Shown: positions 2,219 through 13,226, numbered from the stretch's first letter. The stretch is 16,425 nt of DNA from an uncultured Deinococcales bacterium (GCA_964247135.1 CAXTTL010000103.1:1-16425); one strand, 5' to 3'. Program-made: numbers and translations. Notes: generated by a model from the sequence alone, not told the origin.

Positions 2219-2321
2219 GGGTGAACACAAGCGACCATGCCCGCGAGGTGCATCTTATGGTCAAGAAGGTTCACCCCTACACGACAATGTTTTCTCGTAG
2301 GGGCGAAGCTTGTCTTCGCCC
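2219..2321. repeat. Inverted pair of GTAG-type REP hairpins (REPIN-like doublet); the left copy is interrupted by an insertion
   Basis: Left copy: GGGTGAAC (2219-2226)...GTTCACCC-CTAC (2269-2280). Right copy: GTAG-GGGCGAAG-CTTGT-CTTCGCCC (2297-2321). Spacer between them is 16 bp. Confidence 0.75.
2232..2265 (+). mobile_element. 34-bp small hairpin insertion element, copy A
   Basis: CGACCATGCCCGCGAGGTGCATCTTATGGTCAAG, flanked by AAG (2229-2231) and AAG (2266-2268). It is 31/34 identical to 13102-13135. Confidence 0.7.
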
Positions 2322-2374
2322 GCCAGGACACGAGTGTTGTGCTAAAACGCACGAAATTCGGACGCTACTTGATC

Positions 2375-3901
2375 TTATTTGTGACCTGTTATCAGCAACG
2401 ATTCATACAATCCCGTCACCGCACTCGAGGGTTCACCCATGCCAAAACGCTCGAGCGAATGCAGGTACAAACGGTATTGACGTTTCAGTGCATCTGGACG
2501 GTCGGCGGCGTGCAAGGACAGCATCTTTTCCTGGTGCGCGATTTCGCTGCACGGTTCGAGTCGCAAGGCTTTATCGGCGTAGGTCAGTGCCTCGCTCAGT
2601 TGCTGGGTTTGGCGGTACAGGGCGCTCAGGCTCGAGAGCATTTTGAGGTACATTTCTTTAAACCAGTATCGCCGTCCCCAGCACCAGTCAAATTCTTCGT
2701 TGGCGGCGTACTCGAGCGGAATGTCTGCCAGAAAATCTCCGCTGTACAGGCGCTCGGCAGCTTGGTACGAGACAATGCCTTCTTGTAAATCGCCGTCTTG
2801 CACCAGGGCATTGCCCTGATAGCAAAGTTGTTGAAACATCGGGTAATCGAGCCAGGTATGCTCTGGGACTGCCAGGTAGTAGCGTCCCGCCTCGAGCGTC
2901 AGGTAATCCGCGCCCTGAGCGTTGGGTTGCAGCACATGGCGCAGGCTGTTGACGGTGTGATGCAAGCGGTTTAAACCAAGCTTGATCTGCTTTGTGTTCG
3001 ACCACAGCAGGTCAACCAGTTCCTCGCTGGTCGCGCCCTGCTCACCGCGAAACAACAGGTAGGCGAACAAGGTTTTGATTTTACGGGTCGCGCCTTTTGG
3101 AACGCGCCATTCAAAACTCGAGCCGTCGGAACGGTAAACACGCAGCGCACCGAAACACCTGATCTTCCATTGACCTTCCAAACTGCCCGTCAAGATCAAG
3201 GGTTCTGGCGAATCGACATGATGCGTTTGGGTCAAGACCTCGCTCGAATGCGTCACACCCAGCGCCACGGTCTGGGCAAAACTTGGACTGATGCCCTCGA
3301 GCCAATGCCGAAATTGGGCGCGTTCGTCAAGGCGAGCCAGAATGCGCGGCGGTACAAAATGCGGATTGTCATGAAGTCCGTCGCTTGCCATCATGGCGGG
3401 ATGGGCGTAGATGCTCGAGAGCAATTGTGAATCGAGCAGCAAGTGCTGGTTGTACAAGCAGGCAAATGCCACTGGAAGCTCGAGCGTCAATTCGTGAATG
3501 GCTGCCTCGTACTCGCGCAGGTAGACCGCGCCTGAGGGTGTGCGAATCGCCCAAGTCATCTCGACCAGGAACAACACACCCTTAGCGCCCCCATCGAGCG
3601 CGGCGTTTAGCGCGTTGCGAAAGGCTGCCATGATTGGAGCAACCCGCACAGGTGCGTTCTGAAAACCATATTGACTCGAGAGGGCGATTGAAGGGGTACG
3701 TTCAACGGTTTGTTTTTTCCGTGCCAAAGGCTTGAAAGCCGATTGCAATCCCGCCTGAATACTCGCAACTGAGTGTTCATCTTGAATGTACACGCAACGC
3801 CAAGCTTGGGCTTGAAAAGTTTCAATCAAACCAGCACAATGCGCCCACGGGGGCGCGTGTTGATCGTAATAAATGGCGATGTGCCGACTCGTTTGATTCA
3901 T
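2375..3901 (-). CDS. Transcriptional regulator: N-terminal MEDS (DcmR-type) sensor + OmpR-like winged helix + BTAD (SARP family)
   Basis: N-terminal HIAIYYD...EMTWA...REYEAAIH...ACLYN...AHP...NPHFVPP is a MEDS-like pattern. C-terminal [10 protein letters not shown]...KTLFAYLL...EELVDLLW...[12 protein letters not shown] (wHTH) and LYSGDFL...[12 protein letters not shown] (BTAD). ATGA-coupled to the CoA-transferase stop at 3898-3901. Confidence 0.82.
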
Positions 3902-5241
3902 AGGCGTTCAACAAAATTTGCCCTGGTTTTGGCGCGGACTTCCTCGAGTGTCGCGCCTGGCATCAGTTCGGTCAAGGTCAGTTTGGAATCCAAAAATTCA
4001 AACACCGCCAAGTCCGTAATCACCATGTCCACCGAAGCTCGAGCCGTTAACGGCAGCACGCATTCAGGCACGATTTTGCTCGAGCCATCGCTGTTGGTGT
4101 GCGTCATGGTGATAATCAATTTCTTTGCGCCGCTCGCCAAATCCATCGCGCCACCAACACCCAACAAAGGCTTGCCAGGAACCGCCCAGTTTGCCAGGTT
4201 CGCCGCTTCGTCCACCTCGAGTCCACCCATGATGGCGACATCCACGTGCCGTCCTCGGATCATGGCAAACGATTCCGCACTGTCAAAATAGCTCGCGCCA
4301 GGCAAGGCGGTCACTGGAATCTTGCCCGCGTTGACCGGATACTCGAGCGCACCACCATCTTCTGGCGAGGGTCCAACGCCGAGCATTCCGTTTTCGGTGT
4401 GCAAAATAATGCCTTGCTCGGGCGTAATCAAATCTGCAACCAAAGTCGGAATGCCAATACCAAGGTTCACCACATCGCCGCGCCGCAACTCGAGCAGCGC
4501 CCGCCGTGCCATGTGCATTCGGGCATCGTCCACCTTTTTGATGCTCGCCTTGACCGATGCGCTCGAGCCGAGCAATTCCAGCGTGACATTTGCTTGGACC
4601 AAATAATCCACGAAAACACCAGGGGTATGAATGCTCTCAGGCTCGAGTTCACCCACTTCGACAACCTCTTCGACTTCAGCGATCACCAGATCGGCAGCGG
4701 TTGCCATTGCCCGATTGAAATTTTGTTCGGTCATGCGGTACACCAAATTACCCGCCGTGTCCGCCTTCCACGCCCGCACGAGTGCCACATGCCCCCGAAT
4801 CCCAGGCACGAGCACATGCGGCACACCCGCAAAGTCCCGAGTCTCGAGGTTGGCGGCAATCACCGTGCCTGCCGAAGTGGGCGTGAAAAATGCGGCAATT
4901 CCCGCTCCGCCCGCCCGCAATGCCTCAGCGAGCGAACCCTGCGGAATCAATTGCACCTCGAGCGCCCCAGATTGAGCGGCGGCAACCGCCTCTGGGTTGC
5001 TGGTGAAAAACGAACCGATTGCTTTTTTCAGTTGCCCGTTTCTCAGCAAACGCCCGCCACCCAAACCAGCCTCGCCAACGTTGTTGCCCACAAACGTCAA
5101 ATCTCGAGTTTGGGTTTCGGCAAGCGCGTGAACCAAATGGACTGGATGTCCGGTCATGCCAAAACCACCAACGAGAATCGTGTCGCCGTTTTTGACCAGT
5201 GCGGCGGCTTGTTGGGCTGTGATTTGTGGAACTTGTTTCAT
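3898..5241 (-). CDS. 3-oxoacid (probably 3-oxoadipate) CoA-transferase, fused A+B subunits (PcaI-PcaJ-like)
   Basis: A-subunit motifs [19 protein letters not shown] and NFN..MATAA; B-subunit motifs [13 protein letters not shown] (catalytic Glu) and GVGGAMDL. All lie in one 447-aa ORF in a pca context. Confidence 0.9.
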
Positions 5242-5311
5242 GATTCTCCAAAATTTTATGAAAGTAGAAAAGCTTTTGGTGCGTTACAACTCGAGCTAAG
5301 TTGCTCGCTCT

Positions 5312-5349
5312 CCTCTCATCCCCAACCCTTCTCTCCCAGGAGAGAAGGG
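5312..5349 (+). repeat. REP-like palindromic repeat (CCCTTCTC...GAGAAGGG family)
   Basis: CCTCTCATCCCCAA-CCCTTCTCTCC-CA-GGAGAGAAGGG; nearly identical to 8094-8134. Confidence 0.8.
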
Positions 5350-5421
5350 AGCTTTGGTTTTTTCTTGTGTGGCTGAGATGATGCTCGAGAAGAGGATGTT
5401 GGTTAAGCAAGCACAGATATT

Positions 5422-6690
5422 TTAGATTCGTTCGATGATTGCGGCTTCGCCTTGACCAATACCAACGCAAAGGGTTGCAAGTCCGTACCTCGAGCGTTCG
5501 CCAAGCTGGGCACGGCGCTGAAGTTCGTGAATCAAACTGGTAACAATTCGAGCACCAGAGCAACCCAACGGATGTCCGAGAGCAATTGCACCACCGTTGA
5601 CGTTGGTGATTGACTCATCAATCTCGAGTTCGCGCAGCACGGCTAAAGATTGCACCGCGAAGGCTTCGTTTAATTCAACCAAATCCAAATCCTCGAGTTC
5701 CAGGTTGGCTCGAGCCAAGGCTTTTGGTACGGCTTTGACGGGTCCCAAACCCATCACGCGAGGATCAACGCCTGCCGCCGCACCACTGACCCAGCGTGCC
5801 AGAGGTTTGATGCCCAACGCATCAGCGCGGGTTTCACTCATCAGCACCAGGGCGCTCGCACCGTCGTTCAGACCGCTCGAGTTGCCCGCCGTGACCGTGC
5901 CATTTTTGCGAAAGGCGGGTTTGAGTTTGGTAAGTTGCTCGAGGCTGGTGTCGAGTTCCAGACCGAGTTCGGTTTTTTTAAAGCGTGGGTATTCGTCGGT
6001 GTCAAAAATGATCGGGTCACCCTTGCGGGTTGGGATTGGCACACCGACAATCTCGCGTTTGAAATAACCCGCGTTCATGGCAAACACCGCCCGACGTTGA
6101 GACTCGAGTGCGAAGGCATCCTGTTGTTCACGGCTGATCTCGCCGCCCTTGATTTTGCCCTCCAGACTCATTTGGTAAATGTTCTCGGCGGTTTCACCCA
6201 TCGCCTCGAGTGGAAACAAGGCTTCCATCGCAGGGTTGGGAAAACGCCAACCGAGCGTCGTGTCATAGGCGGTGACATTGCCCGACGGACCAAAGGCAAT
6301 CGGGTTTTTGGGCATGGCATACGGCGCTCGGGTCATGCTTTCGACACCGCCAGCCACGAAAATCTCGCCCTCGCCACACCGAATGGCTCGAGCGGCTTGG
6401 TTGATCGCGGCAAGACCACTGGCGCACAAACGGTTGACGGTGATTCCTGCCACTGAATGCGGCAAACCCGCCAGCAATGCGCCCATGCGTGCCACGTTGC
6501 GGTTGTCCTCGCCGGCTTGGTTGGCGCAGCCAAAGACCACCTCTTCGATCTCGAGCGGATCAATTCCAGCGCGGCTCACGGCTTCACGAATCACGATGGC
6601 TGCCAGATCATCTGGACGCACGCTCGAGAGTCCACCGCGAATCGAAGCGATTGCCGTTCGCACGGCACTGACAATCACGACTTCATGCAC
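5422..6690 (-). CDS. pcaF: Beta-ketoadipyl-CoA thiolase (acetyl-CoA C-acyltransferase)
   Basis: Motifs [30 protein letters not shown] and LCVGIGQG. Likely start is GTG 6690 after AAAGGA, overlapping the pcaB stop. Confidence 0.88.
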
Positions 6691-8029
6691 GTTTGATCCT
6701 TTCTGCTGCCTCAAGGACACGATCAACAAACACGTCGCTCGAGCCGAGGGTGTTTGCTTCAGTCAGTGCGTCCCAATCAATTTTGGCACTCACTTGTTCT
6801 TTTGCCACATCAATCAAGTGGCGTTTGCTGGCAATGGCTTCTTGCGCAATTTTGGCGCTCAATTTTTTGGCGCTAGATTTATCCATAAAAGCCGCCAGCG
6901 CAAATGAAAGCGCCTCGGACAGCATCAAGCCCTGAGAAGCTTTGATATTCTCGAGCATTCTTGCTTGGTTGACCACCAAGTTTTCGCTTAAAAAAACAGT
7001 TTTCTCGAGCGCCCCCGAAGTTAAACCGATCATTTGCCCGAGCGTCAACCACTCGAGTTGCATTCCGTGCGTGCCGCGTTCATGCTCGTGAAGCATGGCT
7101 TGATGCACACCACCCAGTAAATTCGTGTTCATGCGGGCGGCAGTCAAAATAAGTTCGCTGATGACTGGGTTGGATTTTTGCGGCATGGTGCTCGAGCCGC
7201 CACGTGATGCGTCTGAAGATTCGCGCAACTCGGCAATTTCGGATTGTGCCAGCAGCAGCACGTCTTGCGCGATTTTGCCCAGACTGCCCGTGAGCATCGA
7301 AAGCCATCCCGCGAGTTCTGCCATGTTGTCGCGTTGCGTGTGCCATGCCATCAAAGGCAGGTTCAAATCAAGTTCGCTTGCCAGGGCGCTCAAAACATCA
7401 AAACCTCGATTTCCGAGCGCCGCCAACGTCCCAACCGCACCACCAAACTGCACGACCATGACCCGAGGCTCGAGTTCTTTCCAACGTGCATGATGACGAA
7501 TCAATGGCGTAAGCCAGGAAGCCACCTTAAAACCAAACGTGATCGGCAATGCCTGCTGCGTGTGCGTTCTGCCCGCTATGAGGCTGTGCTGATGCCGCCG
7601 AGCGAGGCTGGCAAAATTGGCAATCAAACGCTCGAGGTGTTGCACCATCATCTCGAGCGCGACTCGCAATTGCAAGACCCGCGCCGTGTCGAGAATGTCC
7701 TGCGTGGTCGCCCCAAAATGCACGAAATCAGCCGCCTCGTCCTGCGCCAGATGTTCACGCAATTGCCGCACAAGTTCGATCACCGGAAAACCATCGTTCT
7801 CAATCCCAGCTTTTAAGCCTTCAACATCAACCTCGAGCGTCCGTGTTGCCGCATCTATCGCATTTGCTGCCTCGAGTGGAATGACCCCAAGTTTGCCTTG
7901 CGCCCGTGCTAATGCCGCTTCAACCTCGAGCATGGTTTTGACATGAACCGCGTCCGAGAAGATTTTGGTCACTTCAGGGTCAGCAAAACTCGAACCGTAC
8001 AATTGCGAATCGAGCGCCGAGAACGCCAT
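6683..8029 (-). CDS. pcaB: 3-carboxy-cis,cis-muconate cycloisomerase
   Basis: Fumarase/adenylosuccinate-lyase superfamily motifs [22 protein letters not shown] and [12 protein letters not shown], in a pca context. Confidence 0.9.
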
Positions 8030-8093
8030 TTAAGACACCATCCCAACAACTTGATTTTGCATTCCAGACTCAAAAAGCAGCAAGTTCCTGCTT

Positions 8094-8230
8094 CCCCTCT
8101 CATCCCCAACCCTTCTCTCCATCGGAGAGAAGGGTGTTTTGGCAACATCTTGAGATGCCAAAACATTACGTTCTAAACCCTCTCCCGCATATGCGGGAGA
8201 GGGTGGCGAGCTTGCTCGCCGGGTGAGGGC
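8094..8230. repeat. Composite REP/RIME-like cluster between pcaG and pcaB
   Basis: 8094-8134 is a copy of the 5312 repeat. 8135-8165 is a hairpin (TGTTTTGGC...GCCAAAACA). 8177-8204 is a perfect 28-bp palindrome ACCCTCTCCCGCATATGCGGGAGAGGGT, followed by GGCGAGC-TT-GCTCGCC-GGGTGAGGGC. Confidence 0.8.
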
Positions 8231-8249
8231 TTGATTTTGCCCCAATCTC

Positions 8250-8816
8250 TTAAACATCAAAAAACACCGTCTCGAGTTCGCCCTGCATGTGAATGTCAAA
8301 GCGATAGGTCGTGCCGTCTGTGGCATCCTCTCGGCTGGAAATCAAACTTTTTCGTCGTTGAGGATCGAGGGCGTTGAGTACAGGGTCGCTCGAGTTAGTG
8401 GTTTGATCGTTAAAGTAAATTCTGGTCACAAGATGAATCAGCAAACCGCGCATGAACAAGCGAACGTTGATGTGGGGTGTGGTGTCTCGAGCACCTGGTT
8501 TGATGGTGCGAAACCAGTACGCGCCGTTGACATCCGTCCCAGAACGTCCAAAGCCAGCAAAGTTGGGGTCAGCTTGGGCGTGTTGGGGGTCGGATTCGTG
8601 TTTGAAAATTCCTGCAGCGTCTGCCTGCCAAATCTCGAGCATCGCGTCTGGGATTGGTTGACCTTCGCCATCAAAAACCTGTCCGCGCAGCCAAATAAGC
8701 TCACCTCGAGTTTGCTCACTTACCATGATGTTTTCGCCATCCCGAATCAGGGCGTTATGAAAAAACGGTCCGACGGTTTGACTGGCGGTTTGTAAACTCG
8801 AGCCTTCAGTGTTCAT
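8250..8816 (-). CDS. pcaG: Protocatechuate 3,4-dioxygenase alpha subunit
   Basis: Motifs TASQTVGPFF, EIWQADAAG, TIKPG, PHIN...RGLL..L.TRIYF and YRFDIHMQGELETVFFDV. Start at ATG 8816. Confidence 0.94.
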   Translation of the reverse strand: MNTEGSSLQTASQTVGPFFHNALIRDGENIMVSEQTRGELIWLRGQVFDGEGQPIPDAMLEIWQADAAGIFKHESDPQHAQADPNFAGFGRSGTDVNGAYWFRTIKPGARDTTPHINVRLFMRGLLIHLVTRIYFNDQTTNSSDPVLNALDPQRRKSLISSREDATDGTTYRFDIHMQGELETVFFDV

Positions 8817-9531
8817 CGTCGTCTCCGTCTCGCTCGAAGGTGGTGGAAAGGCTTCCTGCGAGCACAATATCAAAGCGGTAGCCGAGCGCCCATTCTGGTG
8901 TTGTTAGCTCGAGGTCAAAATGCGAGATCAGGCGTGCTCGGGCGGCAGCATCAGGAATGCCGTTGTAAATCGGGTCAAATGGCAAGAGCGGATCGCCTGG
9001 GAAGAACATTTGTGTCACCATGCGCTCGAGAAAGTTGCGTCCAAAAACGCTGAAGTGAATGTGGGCGGGTCGCCAAGCGTTGTGGTGGTTGCGCCACGGG
9101 TACGCGCCCGGTTTGATCGTGGTGAAACGGTACGTGCCGTCATCGTCGGTCAGCACGCGCCCAGCCCCGCTAAAGTTTGGGTCGAGCGGCGCGGGATGTT
9201 GGTCGCGCAAGTGAATGTAACGCCCCGCAGCATTCGCCTGCCAAACCTCGAGCAGCGCATTTCGCACGGGTTTGCCGCGTTCATCAAGTACCCGTCCGGT
9301 CACGATAATTCTTTCACCCAAAGGTTCACCATTTTGAATAGCGTTACGTGTCAGGTCGTTGTCAAATTCTTGCAGGCTCGAGTGACCATACACCGGTCCG
9401 GTCAACTCGCTTAACGTATGCGCCAGCGGCACAAGCGCGTGATTTGGCGCTCGTTTGAGGCTCGAGGTGTAAGGCGGATGCAACAGCGCGGGTTGAATCC
9501 GCCAATCGAGGGTTTGAATCGTTTTGCTCAT
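8806..9531 (-). CDS. pcaH: Protocatechuate 3,4-dioxygenase beta subunit
   Basis: LSELTGP, WQANAAGRY.H and KPGAYPWRNHHNAWRPAHIHFS (Fe ligands). Start at ATG 9531 via ATGA overlap with pcaC. Confidence 0.95.
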   Translation of the reverse strand: MSKTIQTLDWRIQPALLHPPYTSSLKRAPNHALVPLAHTLSELTGPVYGHSSLQEFDNDLTRNAIQNGEPLGERIIVTGRVLDERGKPVRNALLEVWQANAAGRYIHLRDQHPAPLDPNFSGAGRVLTDDDGTYRFTTIKPGAYPWRNHHNAWRPAHIHFSVFGRNFLERMVTQMFFPGDPLLPFDPIYNGIPDAAARARLISHFDLELTTPEWALGYRFDIVLAGSLSTTFERDGDDDEH

Positions 9532-9917
9532 GATGCACCATCCTCGAGCCGTCCCTGTTCGGTCAAGATTCGTTTGGCAATCGCAAAGGCGCTGTTCGCG
9601 GCGGGTACACCCGCGTAGGCGGCGACGTGCATCAGCACCTCGCGCAGTTGTTCGGGTGTGACCCCCGTGTTGATGGTGGATCGCACGTGAAGCTCGAGTT
9701 CGTGTTCTCGACCCAAGGCGGCAAGAATGGCGATGGTCACAAGATGGCGAGTTTGACGCTCGAGTCCGTCTCGGGTCCAAACGCTGCCCCAAACGGTTTC
9801 GGTGATGTGTTGCTGGAAATCTTGATCGAAGGCGTTGGCGTTTTTTAAAGAGCGCTCTACGTGTGCGTCACCAAGCACTTCGCGCCGAACTTTCACGCCG
9901 TTTTCAAACTTGCTCAT
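9528..9917 (-). CDS. pcaC: 4-carboxymuconolactone decarboxylase
   Basis: Motifs RREVLGDAHVER, WGSVWTRDGL and YAGVPAANSAF. Start at ATG 9917 via ATGA overlap. Confidence 0.93.
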   Translation of the reverse strand: MSKFENGVKVRREVLGDAHVERSLKNANAFDQDFQQHITETVWGSVWTRDGLERQTRHLVTIAILAALGREHELELHVRSTINTGVTPEQLREVLMHVAAYAGVPAANSAFAIAKRILTEQGRLEDGAS

Positions 9918-10708
9918 GCAACCCCCTCGAGAAATTTTTTGATGATTCGCGCCATCGCTGCGGGTTGTTGAATGCACGGCAAATGCCCAGCATCTTCGAT
10001 CAATTCCAGCCGAGTCTCGAGGGTTTGCGCGAGTTCTTGACTGAGTGCCACAGGTGTACTTTGGTCATCTTGACCGCAAACCACCAAGGTTTTGACTCGA
10101 GCTTCAAAGATCATTTTGGCTGCCTGGTGTAAATCCGAATCGCGCAACGCCGTGCAAGTGGCGACATAACCCAATACCGATGTGCGCTCGAGCATGTTCT
10201 GAAAACCACGAACTCGAGCGGGTTGCTCGGCATGAAATCTCGAATCAAACCAACGCTGCATCACCGATTGCGAAATGGACTCGAGTCCTCCAGCTTGCAC
10301 CGCACCAATACGGGCGTTCCATGATTCTGCCGTGCCAATTTTCATGCCCGTATCGCAAAACACCGCGCCAGCCACACGCTCGGGAAACTGCGAGGCGAAC
10401 TCGAGCGCGATTTGACCTCCAACCGAAATCCCGACCAAGATCACACGCTCGAGTTGCAGATGCTCGAGCAAGCCAAAAAGATCGTTGGCAAAATCGGTGA
10501 TCGAATATGTTCCCGTCGGCGCGTCGGACAGACCATGACCGCGTTTGTCGTAACGCAACACTGGACGCTCGAGCCTGGCGGTCACACCGTCCCAGATTCG
10601 CAAATCGCTGCCAAGTGAATTGACGAACACCAACGGAATTCCTGTCAAATGCGTGTTCTCGAGTTGGTAATGAACGGTCAAACCAGCAACATTGGCAAAA
10701 TTGGTCAT
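9914..10708 (-). CDS. pcaD: 3-oxoadipate enol-lactonase
   Basis: Alpha/beta hydrolase with NSLGSDLRIWD, RYDKRGHGLS, GISVGG nucleophile elbow and AGHLPC. Confidence 0.92.
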   Translation of the reverse strand: MTNFANVAGLTVHYQLENTHLTGIPLVFVNSLGSDLRIWDGVTARLERPVLRYDKRGHGLSDAPTGTYSITDFANDLFGLLEHLQLERVILVGISVGGQIALEFASQFPERVAGAVFCDTGMKIGTAESWNARIGAVQAGGLESISQSVMQRWFDSRFHAEQPARVRGFQNMLERTSVLGYVATCTALRDSDLHQAAKMIFEARVKTLVVCGQDDQSTPVALSQELAQTLETRLELIEDAGHLPCIQQPAAMARIIKKFLEGVA

Positions 10709-11892
10709 GTCATCACCCTATCCGACTCGAGCATCCCAACGTAATTTTCGGCAAGCACTTGGGCTTGAGCGCGGCTTGAGACCACCTGCTCGAGTTGTGC
10801 CAGTTGCAGCTTGTGCTCATAAGGGTCGGAAAGGTCGTGACGGTGTAACATTGAGGTCATCCACCAGGAAAAATACTGCGCTCGCCACACGCGTTTTAAA
10901 CACGTTTGAGAATATTGACTGAGTGCCAAACTCGAGTTTTGCTGGTATTTTTGGGTCAAGGCGTTCGAGAGAATCTTAACGTCATTGATCGCCAGGTTCA
11001 TGCCCTTTGCACCCGTCGGTGGCACGATATGCGCCGCATCGCCCGCCAAGAACAAGCGCCCGTACTGCATCGGTTCGACCACAAAGCTGCGCATTCCGGT
11101 GATGCCTTTTTCAAAAATAGCGCCCGAAGTCAGCGAAAAATGTTGCGCCTCGAGCCGCGTTCCAAGCTCTTGCCAAATTCGTTCATCAGACCAATTGTCA
11201 ATGTTTTCATCGGGCGCAACTTGAATATAATTTCTCGAGACGCTGGCACTTCGCATACTGTGCAGCGCAAAACCGCGTTCGTGATTGGCGTAAATGAGTT
11301 CGTGGCTCGAGGGTGGCGCTTTTGCCAGAATCCCAAGCCAAGCAAACGGATAATGGCGTTCAAAAACCTTCAACACACCACTGGGAATCGCATCTCGGCA
11401 AATGCCATGAAAACCGTCCGTCCCCGCAATGTAATCACACTCGAGGTTACGTTCTTCGCCGTCCTGAAGAAACGTGATTTTGGGTTGGTTGCCCTCGAGT
11501 CCTGAGAGCCTTATTCCCGTGGCTTCAAAGTGCAAAGGCTGTGCGGACTCGAGTCGCGCCTTGATTAGGTCTTTAACGACCTCCTGCTGCCCGTAGACGG
11601 TAATCGAACGTCCACCTGTCAAACTTGGAAAATCAATGCGGTGCGTTTGCCCACCAAAGCGCAGCAACGTCCCCTCATGGCGCAAACCCTCGAGCGTCAG
11701 GCGTTCACCAAGTCCGTTTGATTTCAATAATTCTACCGTGCCATGCTCGAGCACCCCAGCCCGCACCCGTTTTTCGACGTACTCTCGAGATTTAGATTCC
11801 AGCACCACATTCTCAATGCCTGCACGGTGCAAAAGATGCCCGAGCAGTAAACCTGCTGGTCCTGCGCCAATAATGCCCACTTGGGTTCGCAT
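10705..11892 (-). CDS. pobA: 4-hydroxybenzoate 3-monooxygenase
   Basis: Motifs MRTQVGIIGAGPAGL, RAGVLE, DGFHG, GDAAHIVPPTGAKGMNLA and AENYVG. GGAGG RBS at 11897-11901. Confidence 0.96.
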   Translation of the reverse strand: MRTQVGIIGAGPAGLLLGHLLHRAGIENVVLESKSREYVEKRVRAGVLEHGTVELLKSNGLGERLTLEGLRHEGTLLRFGGQTHRIDFPSLTGGRSITVYGQQEVVKDLIKARLESAQPLHFEATGIRLSGLEGNQPKITFLQDGEERNLECDYIAGTDGFHGICRDAIPSGVLKVFERHYPFAWLGILAKAPPSSHELIYANHERGFALHSMRSASVSRNYIQVAPDENIDNWSDERIWQELGTRLEAQHFSLTSGAIFEKGITGMRSFVVEPMQYGRLFLAGDAAHIVPPTGAKGMNLAINDVKILSNALTQKYQQNSSLALSQYSQTCLKRVWRAQYFSWWMTSMLHRHDLSDPYEHKLQLAQLEQVVSSRAQAQVLAENYVGMLESDRVMT

Positions 11893-11952
11893 CGTGCCTC
11901 CAAAAAAATGATGGCAGCAGTCTCGGGCTTCAAGGGCAGATAATCAAGCCCA

Positions 11953-11987
11953 TTGTCCAGAATAAACGGACAGCATAAAATGCAAGC
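11953..11987 (+). promoter_or_regulatory. Promoter for leaderless IclR gene, overlapped by a candidate IclR operator palindrome
   Basis: TTGTCC (11953-11958), 17 bp, TAAAAT (11976-11981), 6 bp, ATG 11988, with no RBS. Inverted repeat TGTCC-N9-GGACA at 11954-11972. Confidence 0.6.
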
Positions 11988-12797
11988 ATGGCAATTCTTG
12001 GAACGGTTTCTCAGGCTGGAGCGGTACTCGATTTGTTCAGCTTCCAACACCCAGAGTGGGGCGTGCGCCAAGTCGCCCGCACCCTGGCGATTCCTAAATC
12101 CAACGCCCATCAGTTGCTATCCTCGCTCGAGAACATTGGATTGTTGCACCGCATGGTCACAGGGCGTTACCGCCTCGGTTTTAAAATCCTCACGCTCGGG
12201 CAGTACCTCCTGACCAACACGCCTTGGCGCGACGTGGCACACCGCGCACTGGTCAAGCTCGAGGCACAATTTTCTGAAACGGTGCAACTGGCGGTCCTTG
12301 ACGGTGGTCGTTTGATTTACGTGGACAAAATCCTCGGCTCTGACCCGCAGGCGGTCAAGTCCAGCCACAGCGACATCGGTCAAGCCATCTCGCCACACGT
12401 CAACGCCCTGGGGCGCGTGCTGCTTGCCAGCAAATCATGGCGGGTGGTCTTGAACACGTTTCAACCATCTGGATTGCACGCCCACACGCCACACACCATC
12501 ACAGACCAGACCGCCTTCAAAACCGAACTCGAGCAGATTGCACGGCGAGGCTTTGCCCTTGATCTCGAGGAATCAAGAACCGGTGTTTGTTGCATCGCAG
12601 CCCCGATTCGCAACCACAACGGCGACATCATCGCGGCAATCAGCCTCAGTTTGCACTCGAGCCGAAATGAGGGCATTCCAGATTTCTTGCGTGATCAGCT
12701 TTTACAAACTGCCGCTTCGATCTCGAGGTCTATCGCCTTTGATCCAGAGTTTGTCAGTGAAAATCGCACGCAGGCGCGGCTGGCTGGTCGCAATTGA
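11988..12797 (+). CDS. IclR-family transcriptional regulator, divergent from pobA (PobR/PcaR/CreR-like role)
   Basis: N-terminal HTH (WGVRQVARTLAIPKSNAHQLLSSL...GLL...YRLG) and C-terminal ALGRVLLA, RGFALDLEE..GVCCIAAPI. Confidence 0.92.
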   Translation: MAILGTVSQAGAVLDLFSFQHPEWGVRQVARTLAIPKSNAHQLLSSLENIGLLHRMVTGRYRLGFKILTLGQYLLTNTPWRDVAHRALVKLEAQFSETVQLAVLDGGRLIYVDKILGSDPQAVKSSHSDIGQAISPHVNALGRVLLASKSWRVVLNTFQPSGLHAHTPHTITDQTAFKTELEQIARRGFALDLEESRTGVCCIAAPIRNHNGDIIAAISLSLHSSRNEGIPDFLRDQLLQTAASISRSIAFDPEFVSENRTQARLAGRN

Positions 12798-13049
12798 TTA
12801 GGTCCGATGTGGTTGACAGGGATTTAAGGATTCGTCCTGAAATAAAATCCACGTGTATGGGCGCAGCAAGCACATTGACTCCGACTTAATCCCAAAACTC
12901 GAGTCTCACACCAAAAAATGCACTTACCTCGCCTGAAGCCCTCATCCGGCTCGTTCCTCGCCACCTTCTCCCGCAGGGCAGGGGAAGAAGAAAAACCTCG
13001 AACCACACGTGTAAAAAATCGAACTCCCTTCTCCTGATATTGGGAGAAG

Positions 13050-13085
13050 CGCGAACAGCCCGCAAGGTGCTGTCTTGTGAGCAAG
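13050..13085 (+). mobile_element. 36-bp small hairpin insertion element, divergent copy C
   Basis: CGCGAACAGCCCGCAAGGTGCTGTCTTGTGAGCAAG, flanked by AAG (13047-13049) and AAG (13086-13088). Shares the GCCCGCNAGGTGC core and CG...CAAG ends with copies A and B. Confidence 0.65.
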
Positions 13086-13101
13086 AAGGGTCGGGAATGA
13101 G

Positions 13102-13135
13102 CGACCATGCCCGCTAGGTGCGTTTTATGGTCAAG
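13102..13135 (+). mobile_element. 34-bp small hairpin insertion element, copy B
   Basis: CGACCATGCCCGCTAGGTGCGTTTTATGGTCAAG, flanked by AG (13100-13101) and AG (13136-13137). Confidence 0.7.
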
Positions 13136-13226
13136 AGAGGGTAGACAAAGCATTTGCAGATTTTATTTCAGGACAATTCCCAAACCCGTTCAAACTCGAG
13201 TATCGTTTTAAAATCGGAGGCACGCG

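Follow-up and report, generated by a model that had tools for sequence, protein, structure and literature searches.

Self-nesting hairpin units of 36-40 nt inserted as complete blocks into repeats of an uncultured Deinococcales lineage

Very small non-coding repeats dispersed through a genome are known from cyanobacteria, where eight families of small dispersed repeats (SDR1 to SDR8) of 21-27 nt were reportedly described in the Nostocaceae by Elhai et al. in 2008 (Genome Res 18:1484). In this work we analyzed a 16,425 nt stretch of DNA from an uncultured Deinococcales bacterium (GCA_964247135.1, CAXTTL010000103.1:1-16425; hereafter the window), which is contig C103 of a 5.09 Mb assembly in 386 contigs with 52.6% G+C (G000). 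The window carries three copies (A, B, and C) of a lineage-specific family of non-coding hairpins, here called units, which are inserted as complete blocks of the form CG-hairpin-CAAG-A-N-G. Judged by analogy of behavior, the Nostocaceae SDRs are the closest match. As reported, these are likewise very small dispersed non-coding repeats of a single lineage, with a hairpin kept by compensatory changes; they are found inside other repeats, some are nested in their own copies, and no enzyme is known for them. The host genomes also carry a hyper-iterated palindrome in both cases, HIP1 there and CTCGAG here. An earlier reading of the window, made from the sequence alone (the sequence-only reading), had drawn this parallel, and as an analogy it is apt on account of the nesting, the hairpin, and the compensatory changes. 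The units differ from SDRs in the length of the hairpin (33-37 nt against 21-27 nt) and in belonging to the phylum Deinococcota, the likeness drawn here being one of behavior; the RNA route proposed for SDRs finds no support here. The available portion of one report states that no SDR-like repeat was found outside the Nostocaceae (PMC5861425). The units provide a second, independent, and richer case of the puzzle posed by the cyanobacterial repeats, and this makes the question of what moves such tiny hairpins a testable one.

Three further systems invite comparison. Repetitive extragenic palindromes (REPs) and REPINs are imperfect palindromes of 20-40 nt, present in high copy number and mostly extragenic, and in these respects, as given in the available parts of the sources, the unit conforms to the description (PMC3116915, PMC8266576, PMC3733652). 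Shared features are also a conserved irregularity of the stem, C|T junctions on one strand, C|T being the dinucleotide cut by RAYTs, and the presence of GTAG REPs and RAYT genes in the same genomes as the units; RAYTs are described as cutting C|T 5' or 3' of the REP hairpin and as requiring the stem bulge (PMC8266576, in the portion available). In contrast to REPs, the units show no GTAG or CGTC end on either strand of a 41-unit alignment, starting with CGA, CGG, or CGC and ending with CAAG; they occur singly, nested, or in direct tandem and not as inverted doublets; no RAYT gene is flanked by units, as it would be in a REPtron; and they insert into REP loops and into themselves, which those parts of the literature do not describe for REPs. 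The CGTC REPs (Di Nocera et al., 2013; PMC3733652) resemble the units in being single hairpins with an unpaired CG head and a short unpaired tail, and the available text of that source states that they lack a dedicated transposase and that some REP families lie inside other palindromes. Their head is CGTC and their tail CCA, however, where the units have CG[A/G/C] and AAG(AAG), and they are reported from five other phyla, mostly as head-to-head dimers, with nesting and tandem arrays not mentioned in that text. The IS200/IS605 elements IS608 and ISDra2 resemble the units, according to the available parts of PMC5027513 and PMC8266576, in insertion 3' of a short sequence without duplication, although the target of the units is looser, in an element end that looks like the target, and, on the reading proposed below, in a hairpin with an unpaired T as the recognition element and in single-stranded targets. 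IS608 is said there to insert 3' to TTAC via a circular single-stranded DNA intermediate (PMC5027513), and its TnpA to hold the unpaired T17 of the hairpin (PMC8266576). These elements are, however, around 1 kb or more in length with a hairpin at each end and a tnpA gene of their own, against one 34-nt hairpin here; their bias towards the lagging-strand template was not seen here, on contigs that are short; and no unit-like hairpin that would match a resident IS was found beside the resident IS200-like tnpA genes. We found no published description of the unit in the open-access literature, and in the available text of RepRanger (PMC12306157) Deinococcota genomes appear in a table only.

A unit consists, in order, of CG, an arm of 5-6 nt, the core GCCCG-N(1-2)-AGGTGC, a T-rich bulge, a complementary arm ending in C, and AAG, and the three bases beyond CAAG are A, a variable base, and G, usually AAG. 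The hairpin measures 33-37 nt and the net insert with its tail 36-40 nt, which is far smaller than a miniature inverted-repeat transposable element (MITE), as the sequence-only reading had maintained, and puts it at the bottom of the size range documented for inserting DNA. All three window copies start with CG, end with CAAG, and carry GCCCGC[G/A/T]AGGTGC at the positions that reading had given; the core GCCCGCNAGGTGC is found three times in the window where 0.12 are expected, and in none of 200 shuffles was this number reached. Unit A (2232-2268, + strand), of the CGACCAT subfamily, is a 34-nt hairpin (2232-2265) followed by an AAG tail, with a net insert of 37 nt. It lies in a GTAG-type REP, REP1 (2220-2280, - strand; GTAGGGGTGAAC..GTTCACC), and splits the 5-nt loop of the latter, leaving the halves 2220-2231 and 2269-2280. 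Excision of the hairpin plus 3 nt restores GGTGAACACAAGGTTCACCCCTAC, which is the sequence of the 16 uninterrupted copies among the 23 copies of REP1 in G000. The seven filled copies comprise five with a single unit in the loop in the orientation seen in the window, one with a unit that holds a nested second unit, and one with a unit in the opposite orientation. REP1 and a second GTAG REP (2297-2321, + strand; GTAGGGGCGAAGCTTGTCTTCGCCC) together form a composite repeat of ~200 bp (about 2160-2363), and the paralogues of this repeat at C215:7695-7885 and C45:22445-22640 align throughout, the 37-nt block being precisely what the window copy has in addition.

Units B and C interrupt a single copy of a different host, a hairpin-plus-tail repeat named Fam4. 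The left part of this copy (13026-13049, + strand) is a hairpin CCCTTCTCC-loop-GGAGAAG that ends at insertion site 1 (GAGAAG^GG). It is followed by unit C (13050-13088, + strand), of the CGCGAACA subfamily, in which a tandem G.A/A.G mismatch is retained in the lower stem and which is composed of 36 nt (13050-13085) and an AAG tail, giving a net insert of 39 nt. The middle part of Fam4, GGTCGGGAATGAG (13089-13101, + strand), ends at insertion site 2, where unit B (13102-13137, + strand), again of the CGACCAT subfamily, has a 34-nt hairpin (13102-13135) plus tail. The tail of unit B is AG, with a net insert of 36 nt, if the empty site was GATGAGAGGG, and AGAG (to 13139), with a net insert of 38 nt, if it was GATGAGGG; sister copies on contigs C8, C44, and C191 are consistent with 38 nt. 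Among Fam4 variants at site 2, GG[GA]ATGAGGGT is found in 49 copies and GG[GA]ATGAGAGGGT in 3, so that GATGAGGGT is the commoner form in the genome. Excision of both units restores Fam4 in the form of the two intact copies at 5310-5349 and 8095-8134 (both - strand), which are paralogous empty sites within the window itself. The excisions at REP1 and Fam4 had both been proposed by the sequence-only reading, and both hold against the genome.

The same picture extends to the whole genome. The strict core GCCCGC.AGGTGC occurs 38 times in G000, GCCCG..AGGTGC 132 times, and the full-unit pattern with a core of 12-13 nt 158 times, while iterative peeling, in which intact units are removed in successive rounds, gives 187 units (157 intact, then a further 26 and 4). 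Peeling thereby exposes 30 further units that had been split by nested copies, whereas random deletions of 37 nt gave no new unit in five trials. For 117 of the 153 testable units the deletion yields an 18-mer that is present elsewhere in the genome, with the best deletion lengths at 36-40 nt. When the boundaries are fixed at the unit plus 3 nt, 86 of 151 units pass this empty-site test, against only 13-30 of 151 when the deletion is shifted by 5-15 nt, and these residual passes are due to the periodic tandem arrays. In silico excision also raises the number of intact copies of each host repeat, from 16 to 23 for REP1, from 105 to 115 for REP2 (GGTGCGC-N3-GCGCACCCTAC), from 142 to 162 for REP3 (GGGCGC-N8-GCGCCC), and from 69 to 97 for Fam4. 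ARAGORN detected 66 tRNAs in G000 both before and after excision, that is, no tRNA gene split by a unit. The units are thus inserted as complete blocks, and in doing so they reshape intergenic regions and REPs.

Insertions that differ between species at orthologous sites were found around metK. Downstream of this gene a REP3 whose loop holds a CGACCAT unit is common to G000 and its congener G005; the loop of this unit is intact in G005 (GCCCGTCAGGTGC), while in G000 it holds a 39-nt unit of another subfamily exactly at GCCCGTCAG^GTGC. Upstream of metK the same Fam4 copy is found in each of the five species of the genus. No unit interrupts it in G002 or G005. In G000 there is a unit at GAGAAG^GG, in G004 a different unit at the same point, with two nested tandem units inside it, and in G003 the insertion is in the hairpin loop and of a third kind. 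A REP1 further upstream has no unit in G004 but is occupied in G002 and G005. Since the insertions differ between congeneric species at orthologous sites, the units have moved recently, that is, since the split of the species of one genus. Such filled and empty orthologous pairs, which the sequence-only reading had looked to, are therefore present around metK but not at the sites of the window, where the spacers are not conserved in the nearest genome. Site A in G003 was considered as a pair and rejected: G003 is the closest genome and its genes flanking site A are 95% identical, but its spacer is 167 nt against 239 nt and wholly different in sequence. For sites B and C the flanking genes of G003 lie on separate contigs, leaving no orthologous site for comparison. 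Four public sequencing runs, represented by contigs only, gave no usable presence/absence polymorphism at sites A, B, and C; their contigs contain relatives at about 90% likeness, with high depth over the repeat bins, and among the public runs listed none held more than 0.12 of the sampled words and none was an RNA run. The natural evidence is unusually clean: filled and empty sites run into the hundreds, nesting is exact, and congeneric species differ at orthologous positions.

The family is confined to one lineage. Between 1 and 325 copies of the unit pattern were found in each of 19 genomes of the uncultured Deinococcales family to which the window belongs (five genera), with 325 units in G001 and 319 in G003, against 0-2 copies in each of 22 genomes of four sister families, which is the chance level and equals the 0-2 copies of a reversed control pattern. 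In a scan of all prokaryotes with one genome per species at least 114 loci matched; among the matches listed, 53 of 80 records are metagenome-assembled genomes named "Deinococcales bacterium" or "Deinococcota bacterium", and the other 27 have one match each without the CG start or paired arms. A covariance model gave only weak matches of at most 29 bits in 150 other Deinococcota genomes, compared with 44-62 bits in G000, and we read the matches outside the family as chance or distant resemblance. Four of the five that were inspected were set aside, as they lie antisense inside the orfA coding region of IS3-type elements of Deinococcus-like genomes. This 41-nt unit-like stretch in the IS3-family orfA (HTH_Tnp_1) is found at about 1501-1541 of loci L187-L190 (genomes G097, G040, G042, and G088), reads CG-arm-GCCCC-ATAC-GGGTGC-..-arm-CAAGACG, and scores 27-28 bits; it is multi-copy because the IS itself is multi-copy, and it is either a chance match or a hint at the origin of the unit. 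A solitary unit-like hairpin of 29 bits, with paired arms GACCA/TGGTC and a CAAGAAG tail, was also seen at L186:1501-1541 in G101, which belongs to a sister family otherwise without units.

That the unit folds is supported by covariation, as the sequence-only reading had argued from three copies. At least 12 arm pairs keep their complementarity through changes on both sides, among them GACCAT/ATGGTC, GGTTTC/GAAACC, GATCCC/GGGATC, GATGCC/GGCATC, GACCCT/AGGGTC, GACTAT/ATAGTC, and GGTCTC/GAGACC. In a test set of 41 distinct units drawn from many genomes, 91.3% of cells were paired against 78.6% in shuffles and the covariation score was 0.253 against 0.076, with none of 500 shuffles as high in either measure, and slid-register controls reached only 27-41% pairing. 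The inner helix GCCC/GG-T-GC, the core, and the bulged T are unchanged in all 41 units, and the closing pair of the inner helix co-varies (A-T, T-A, T.G, C-G). It should be noted that the DNA fold z-scores of single copies are modest (-0.7 to -2.4); folding energies of single copies being unremarkable, the case for the hairpin rests on covariation. Selection therefore acts on the fold and not on the sequence of the arms. No Rfam family matched in the window at the gathering threshold, the best sub-threshold hit scoring 13.5 bits against a threshold of 42.7.

Upon classification of the 187 units by context, 36 were found in GTAG-type REPs, 40 in Fam4 (35 at site 1 and 5 at site 2), 32 nested in another unit, 31 in tandem, and 48 elsewhere, with many of the last group falling in further repeat families. 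The host range thus covers at least four repeat families in addition to the loop and the tail of the unit itself, which extends the two unrelated hosts of the sequence-only reading. Nested insertions have the junction GCCCG-NN-AG^[unit+AAG]GTGC, lie at the 3' edge of the G-N-N-A loop of the outer unit, and are up to three deep, while tandem insertions occur directly behind the AAG tail of another unit and give head-to-tail arrays with a period of 36-40 nt, with up to four units in a row in relatives. Insertion therefore favors the loops or 3' arms of hairpins, and the unit's own loop and own tail. Of 152 units, 150 directly follow a G; the last two flank bases are AG for 119 units, against 4.8% genomic AG, and the last three AAG for 79 of 153, a target that is looser than the TTAC or TTGAT of IS200/IS605 elements.

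The short direct repeats at the edges of the window copies, AAG..AAG at A and C and AG..AG at B, are literally present, but their interpretation by the sequence-only reading as target-site duplications does not stand. AAG forms the tail of 107 of the 153 units. Among the 74 units with a left flank that ends otherwise than in AAG, 45 have this tail, and so do 20 of the 34 for which the flank lacks a terminal AG (e.g., AGG, CTG, TTG, TGG, GCG). As the tail is AAG regardless of the left flank, it belongs to the inserted block, and the apparent duplication is a tail that resembles the preferred target (..AAG, ..AG). Insertion thus follows a G, usually AG, without a fixed target duplication, and no fixed-length duplication of arbitrary sequence, the mark of a classical MITE, was found. 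In sum, the sequence-only reading held for insertion, hosts, empty sites, and fold, and failed on the duplications. Because the insert also ends in G, a single G cannot be assigned to flank or insert, and the block can be read either as CG..CAAGAAG placed after a G or as GCG..CAAGAA placed before one. The copy on C383, in reverse orientation in REP1, fits only the second reading, and its junction recurs in G002 and G005. On the opposite strand most junctions read C|T on both sides. The scarless, duplication-free placing of a short hairpin after a G in loops may be of interest as a tool.

Our preferred reading combines the block insertion described above with movement of the unit as a single-stranded hairpin by a trans-acting HUH-type enzyme; we put it forward tentatively, as somewhat short of probable, and most of its weight lies on the block insertion. 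The involvement of an HUH enzyme specifically, proposed by analogy, is possible but rather doubtful. The unit would move as single-stranded DNA and be recognized as a folded hairpin, and an HUH-type endonuclease/transposase, be it Y1, RAYT, or Rep-like, would make its cuts behind ..(A)AG in the target and in the tail of the unit alike and would join the ends in the manner of IS200/IS605 peel-and-paste transposition. Conserved in the hairpin are the G-N(N)-A loop, the T-rich bulge, and the bulged T, which is invariant, whereas the arms would need only to pair. Such a mechanism would account for the likeness of tail and target, for the lack of a duplication, for the use of the unit's own tail and own loop as targets, and for the preference for exposed hairpin loops. 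The C|T junctions of the opposite strand correspond to the dinucleotide cut by the RAYTs studied so far, and Y1 HUH genes (PF01797) are found in 16 of the 19 family genomes against 3 of the 22 sister genomes.

No mobilizing enzyme is encoded in the window, as the sequence-only reading had noted, and no enzyme linked to the unit was found. G000 has four Y1 genes, namely one IS200-like tnpA, two intact RAYT genes, and one truncated RAYT gene, and the RAYT genes are flanked by GTAG REPs (GTAGGG/CCCTAC) and not by the unit. IS91-type Y2_Tnp was detected in none of the 41 genomes, but control genomes were equally silent, so that this result carries no information. Several observations weigh against the single-strand HUH reading. 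No Y1 match was obtained in the unit-rich genomes G008 (100 units, 91% complete) and G006 (195 units, 74% complete), and orthologues of one G000 RAYT are present in 10 of 19 family and 3 of 22 sister genomes. There is no unit core within 1.5 kb of any of the four Y1 genes of G000, and a covariance-model scan of 18 IS200- or RAYT-like loci in 10 genomes returned a single true unit, 1.1 kb off, the remaining matches all being at most 12 bits. Only five inverted unit pairs lie 300-4000 bp apart, all around ordinary genes, and the genes next to these pairs and to the tandem arrays are all of a housekeeping kind, such as those for SAM synthetase, oxidoreductases, a solute-binding protein, and a protease. 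The orientation of units is not associated with GC skew (Fisher p 0.26-0.77), which is weak evidence since the contigs are short, and the origin is unknown. A single hairpin with no GTAG head is unlike both model systems, and about 22% of targets are not AG. Tail variants such as ACG, AGG, ACAG, and ATAG exist, and the middle tail base and the loop Ns are hypervariable; precise cutting and joining does not predict a variable tail, which therefore counts against the proposal.

An improbable alternative is that a site-specific recombinase integrates the unit, as a small circle or a multimer, at short microhomologies (G, AG, AAG, GCG), the candidates being an IS110-type DEDD enzyme or a tyrosine recombinase with folded hairpins as its substrate, comparable to integron attC sites. 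It would account for the junction that can be rotated by 1-5 nt in most copies, which corresponds to microhomology of the tail-head junction with the target, for the array period that equals the unit, and for the C383 copy, which fits only the permuted block G+unit+AA. IS110-family elements are known to target REPs, and IS110 genes are present in G000. IS110 DEDD genes are, however, found in only 9 of 19 family genomes (and in 3 of 22 sister genomes), the targets share only ..G or AG, far below the specification by a bridge RNA or attC, no GTTRRRY/RYYYAAC boxes were seen in the unit by inspection, and no recombinase gene adjoins the arrays.

It is likewise unlikely, though of wider consequence, that an unrecognized host-encoded system writes the ~37-nt hairpin into exposed single-stranded loops without any duplication and that this lineage-specific DNA transaction is linked to CTCGAG as well. 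If true, the pairing of an iterated palindrome with tiny self-nesting hairpins, as HIP1 with SDRs and again in Deinococcales, would reflect one general mechanism and not coincidence.

For the cyanobacterial repeats Elhai et al. are said to have proposed an RNA-mediated route, and a version in which a transcript of the unit forms an RNA hairpin with a GNNA-type loop, which a reverse transcriptase then converts to DNA again, seems to us decidedly unlikely here. The analogy with those repeats speaks for it, as do the G.T (G.U) wobbles kept in the inner helix, with a UG closing pair in 10 of 41 units, the G-N-N-A loop, the tandem G.A pairs of one subfamily, and the A-rich tail AAGAAG; but DNA hairpins, too, are stable with G.T and G.A pairs and with GNA/GNNA loops. 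A reverse transcriptase (RVT_1) is present in only 5 of 19 family genomes, and in neither of the unit-rich G001 and G003, against 4 of 22 sister genomes, the units are equally often sense and antisense to flanking genes (38 and 37, from crude longest-ORF gene calls), and the Rfam search gave no match.

Passive spread, in which units ride as passengers of their host repeats or are copied by gene conversion or replication slippage between repeats, is very improbable. It is in line with the 76 of 187 units that lie in two kinds of host repeat, with the many other sites in further repeat families, and with the existence of chimeric units with unmatched arms, which imply recombination between copies. 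One subfamily is nevertheless found in unrelated hosts and in unique sequence, both orientations occur within one REP, nesting is exact to the base, and it is contradicted by the orthologous hosts at metK, which lack a unit in some species and in others hold different units or are interrupted at other points.

A classical miniature transposon moved by a DDE-type transposase, with staggered cuts and a target duplication of 2-3 bp, would explain the AAG..AAG and AG..AG that flank the three window copies and would take the arms as its inverted repeats, but is extremely improbable and largely refuted by the flank-independent tail; moreover, the base before the last G of the flank does not match the middle base of the tail, the net insert is the hairpin plus 3 nt whatever the target, and the arms vary in sequence with only their pairing kept, the opposite of transposase-bound terminal repeats.

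All three window units are intergenic: the neighbors of unit A are genes for a cytochrome P450 and a MEDS/BTAD regulator, and those of units C and B are genes for an IclR regulator and a LarA-like protein in a protocatechuate/beta-ketoadipate gene cluster. Across the genome the crude longest-ORF calls place 41 of 183 cores inside ORFs, a figure that is unreliable. Comparison of the spacer at 2153-2392 with G003:C428:517-684 showed that the intergenic sequence with its REPs is replaced by unrelated sequence, and the same was seen on a metagenome contig; REP-bearing spacers in this lineage turn over very fast.

Several minor features of the units were also recorded. In one subfamily the loop Ns and the middle tail base are near-saturated with changes (1.3-1.6 bits, against 0-0.5 at other free positions); in the window the hypervariable loop positions are 2244-2245, 13063-13064, and 13114-13115. 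The loop switches between G-N-A and G-N-N-A (cores of 12 and 13 nt) among otherwise identical copies. The commonest loop, GCCCGAAGGTGC, found in 34 of 183 units, is the residue expected after removal of a nested unit one register to the left, and may thus represent a scar left by excision. Some tails, for instance ACG, are shared by different unit subfamilies that sit at targets of one kind. The chimeric units, in which the left arm is of one subfamily and the right arm of another and the arms are unpaired (e.g., L049:1493-1533 and G000 C8:27697), look like products of recombination or deletion between the cores of neighboring or nested units.

An intact copy of a further repeat family is present at 8180-8232 of the window (CCCTCTCCCGC..GCGGGAGAGGGTGGCGAGC..GCTCGCCGGGTGAGGGC), and copies related to it (GAGAGGGTGACGAGCC..GCGAG^TCGGGTGAG) carry a unit at the marked point on contigs C27, C30, C189, and C256. 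The palindrome CTCGAG occurs 33,925 times in the 5.09 Mb of G000, which is 27 times the expectation or about one per 150 bp, with examples in the window at 2105-2110, 5290-5295, 5386-5391, and 13196-13201, and other 6-bp palindromes are near-absent from this genome (GAGCTC 0, GGATCC 7, CGATCG 47, CTGCAG 49).

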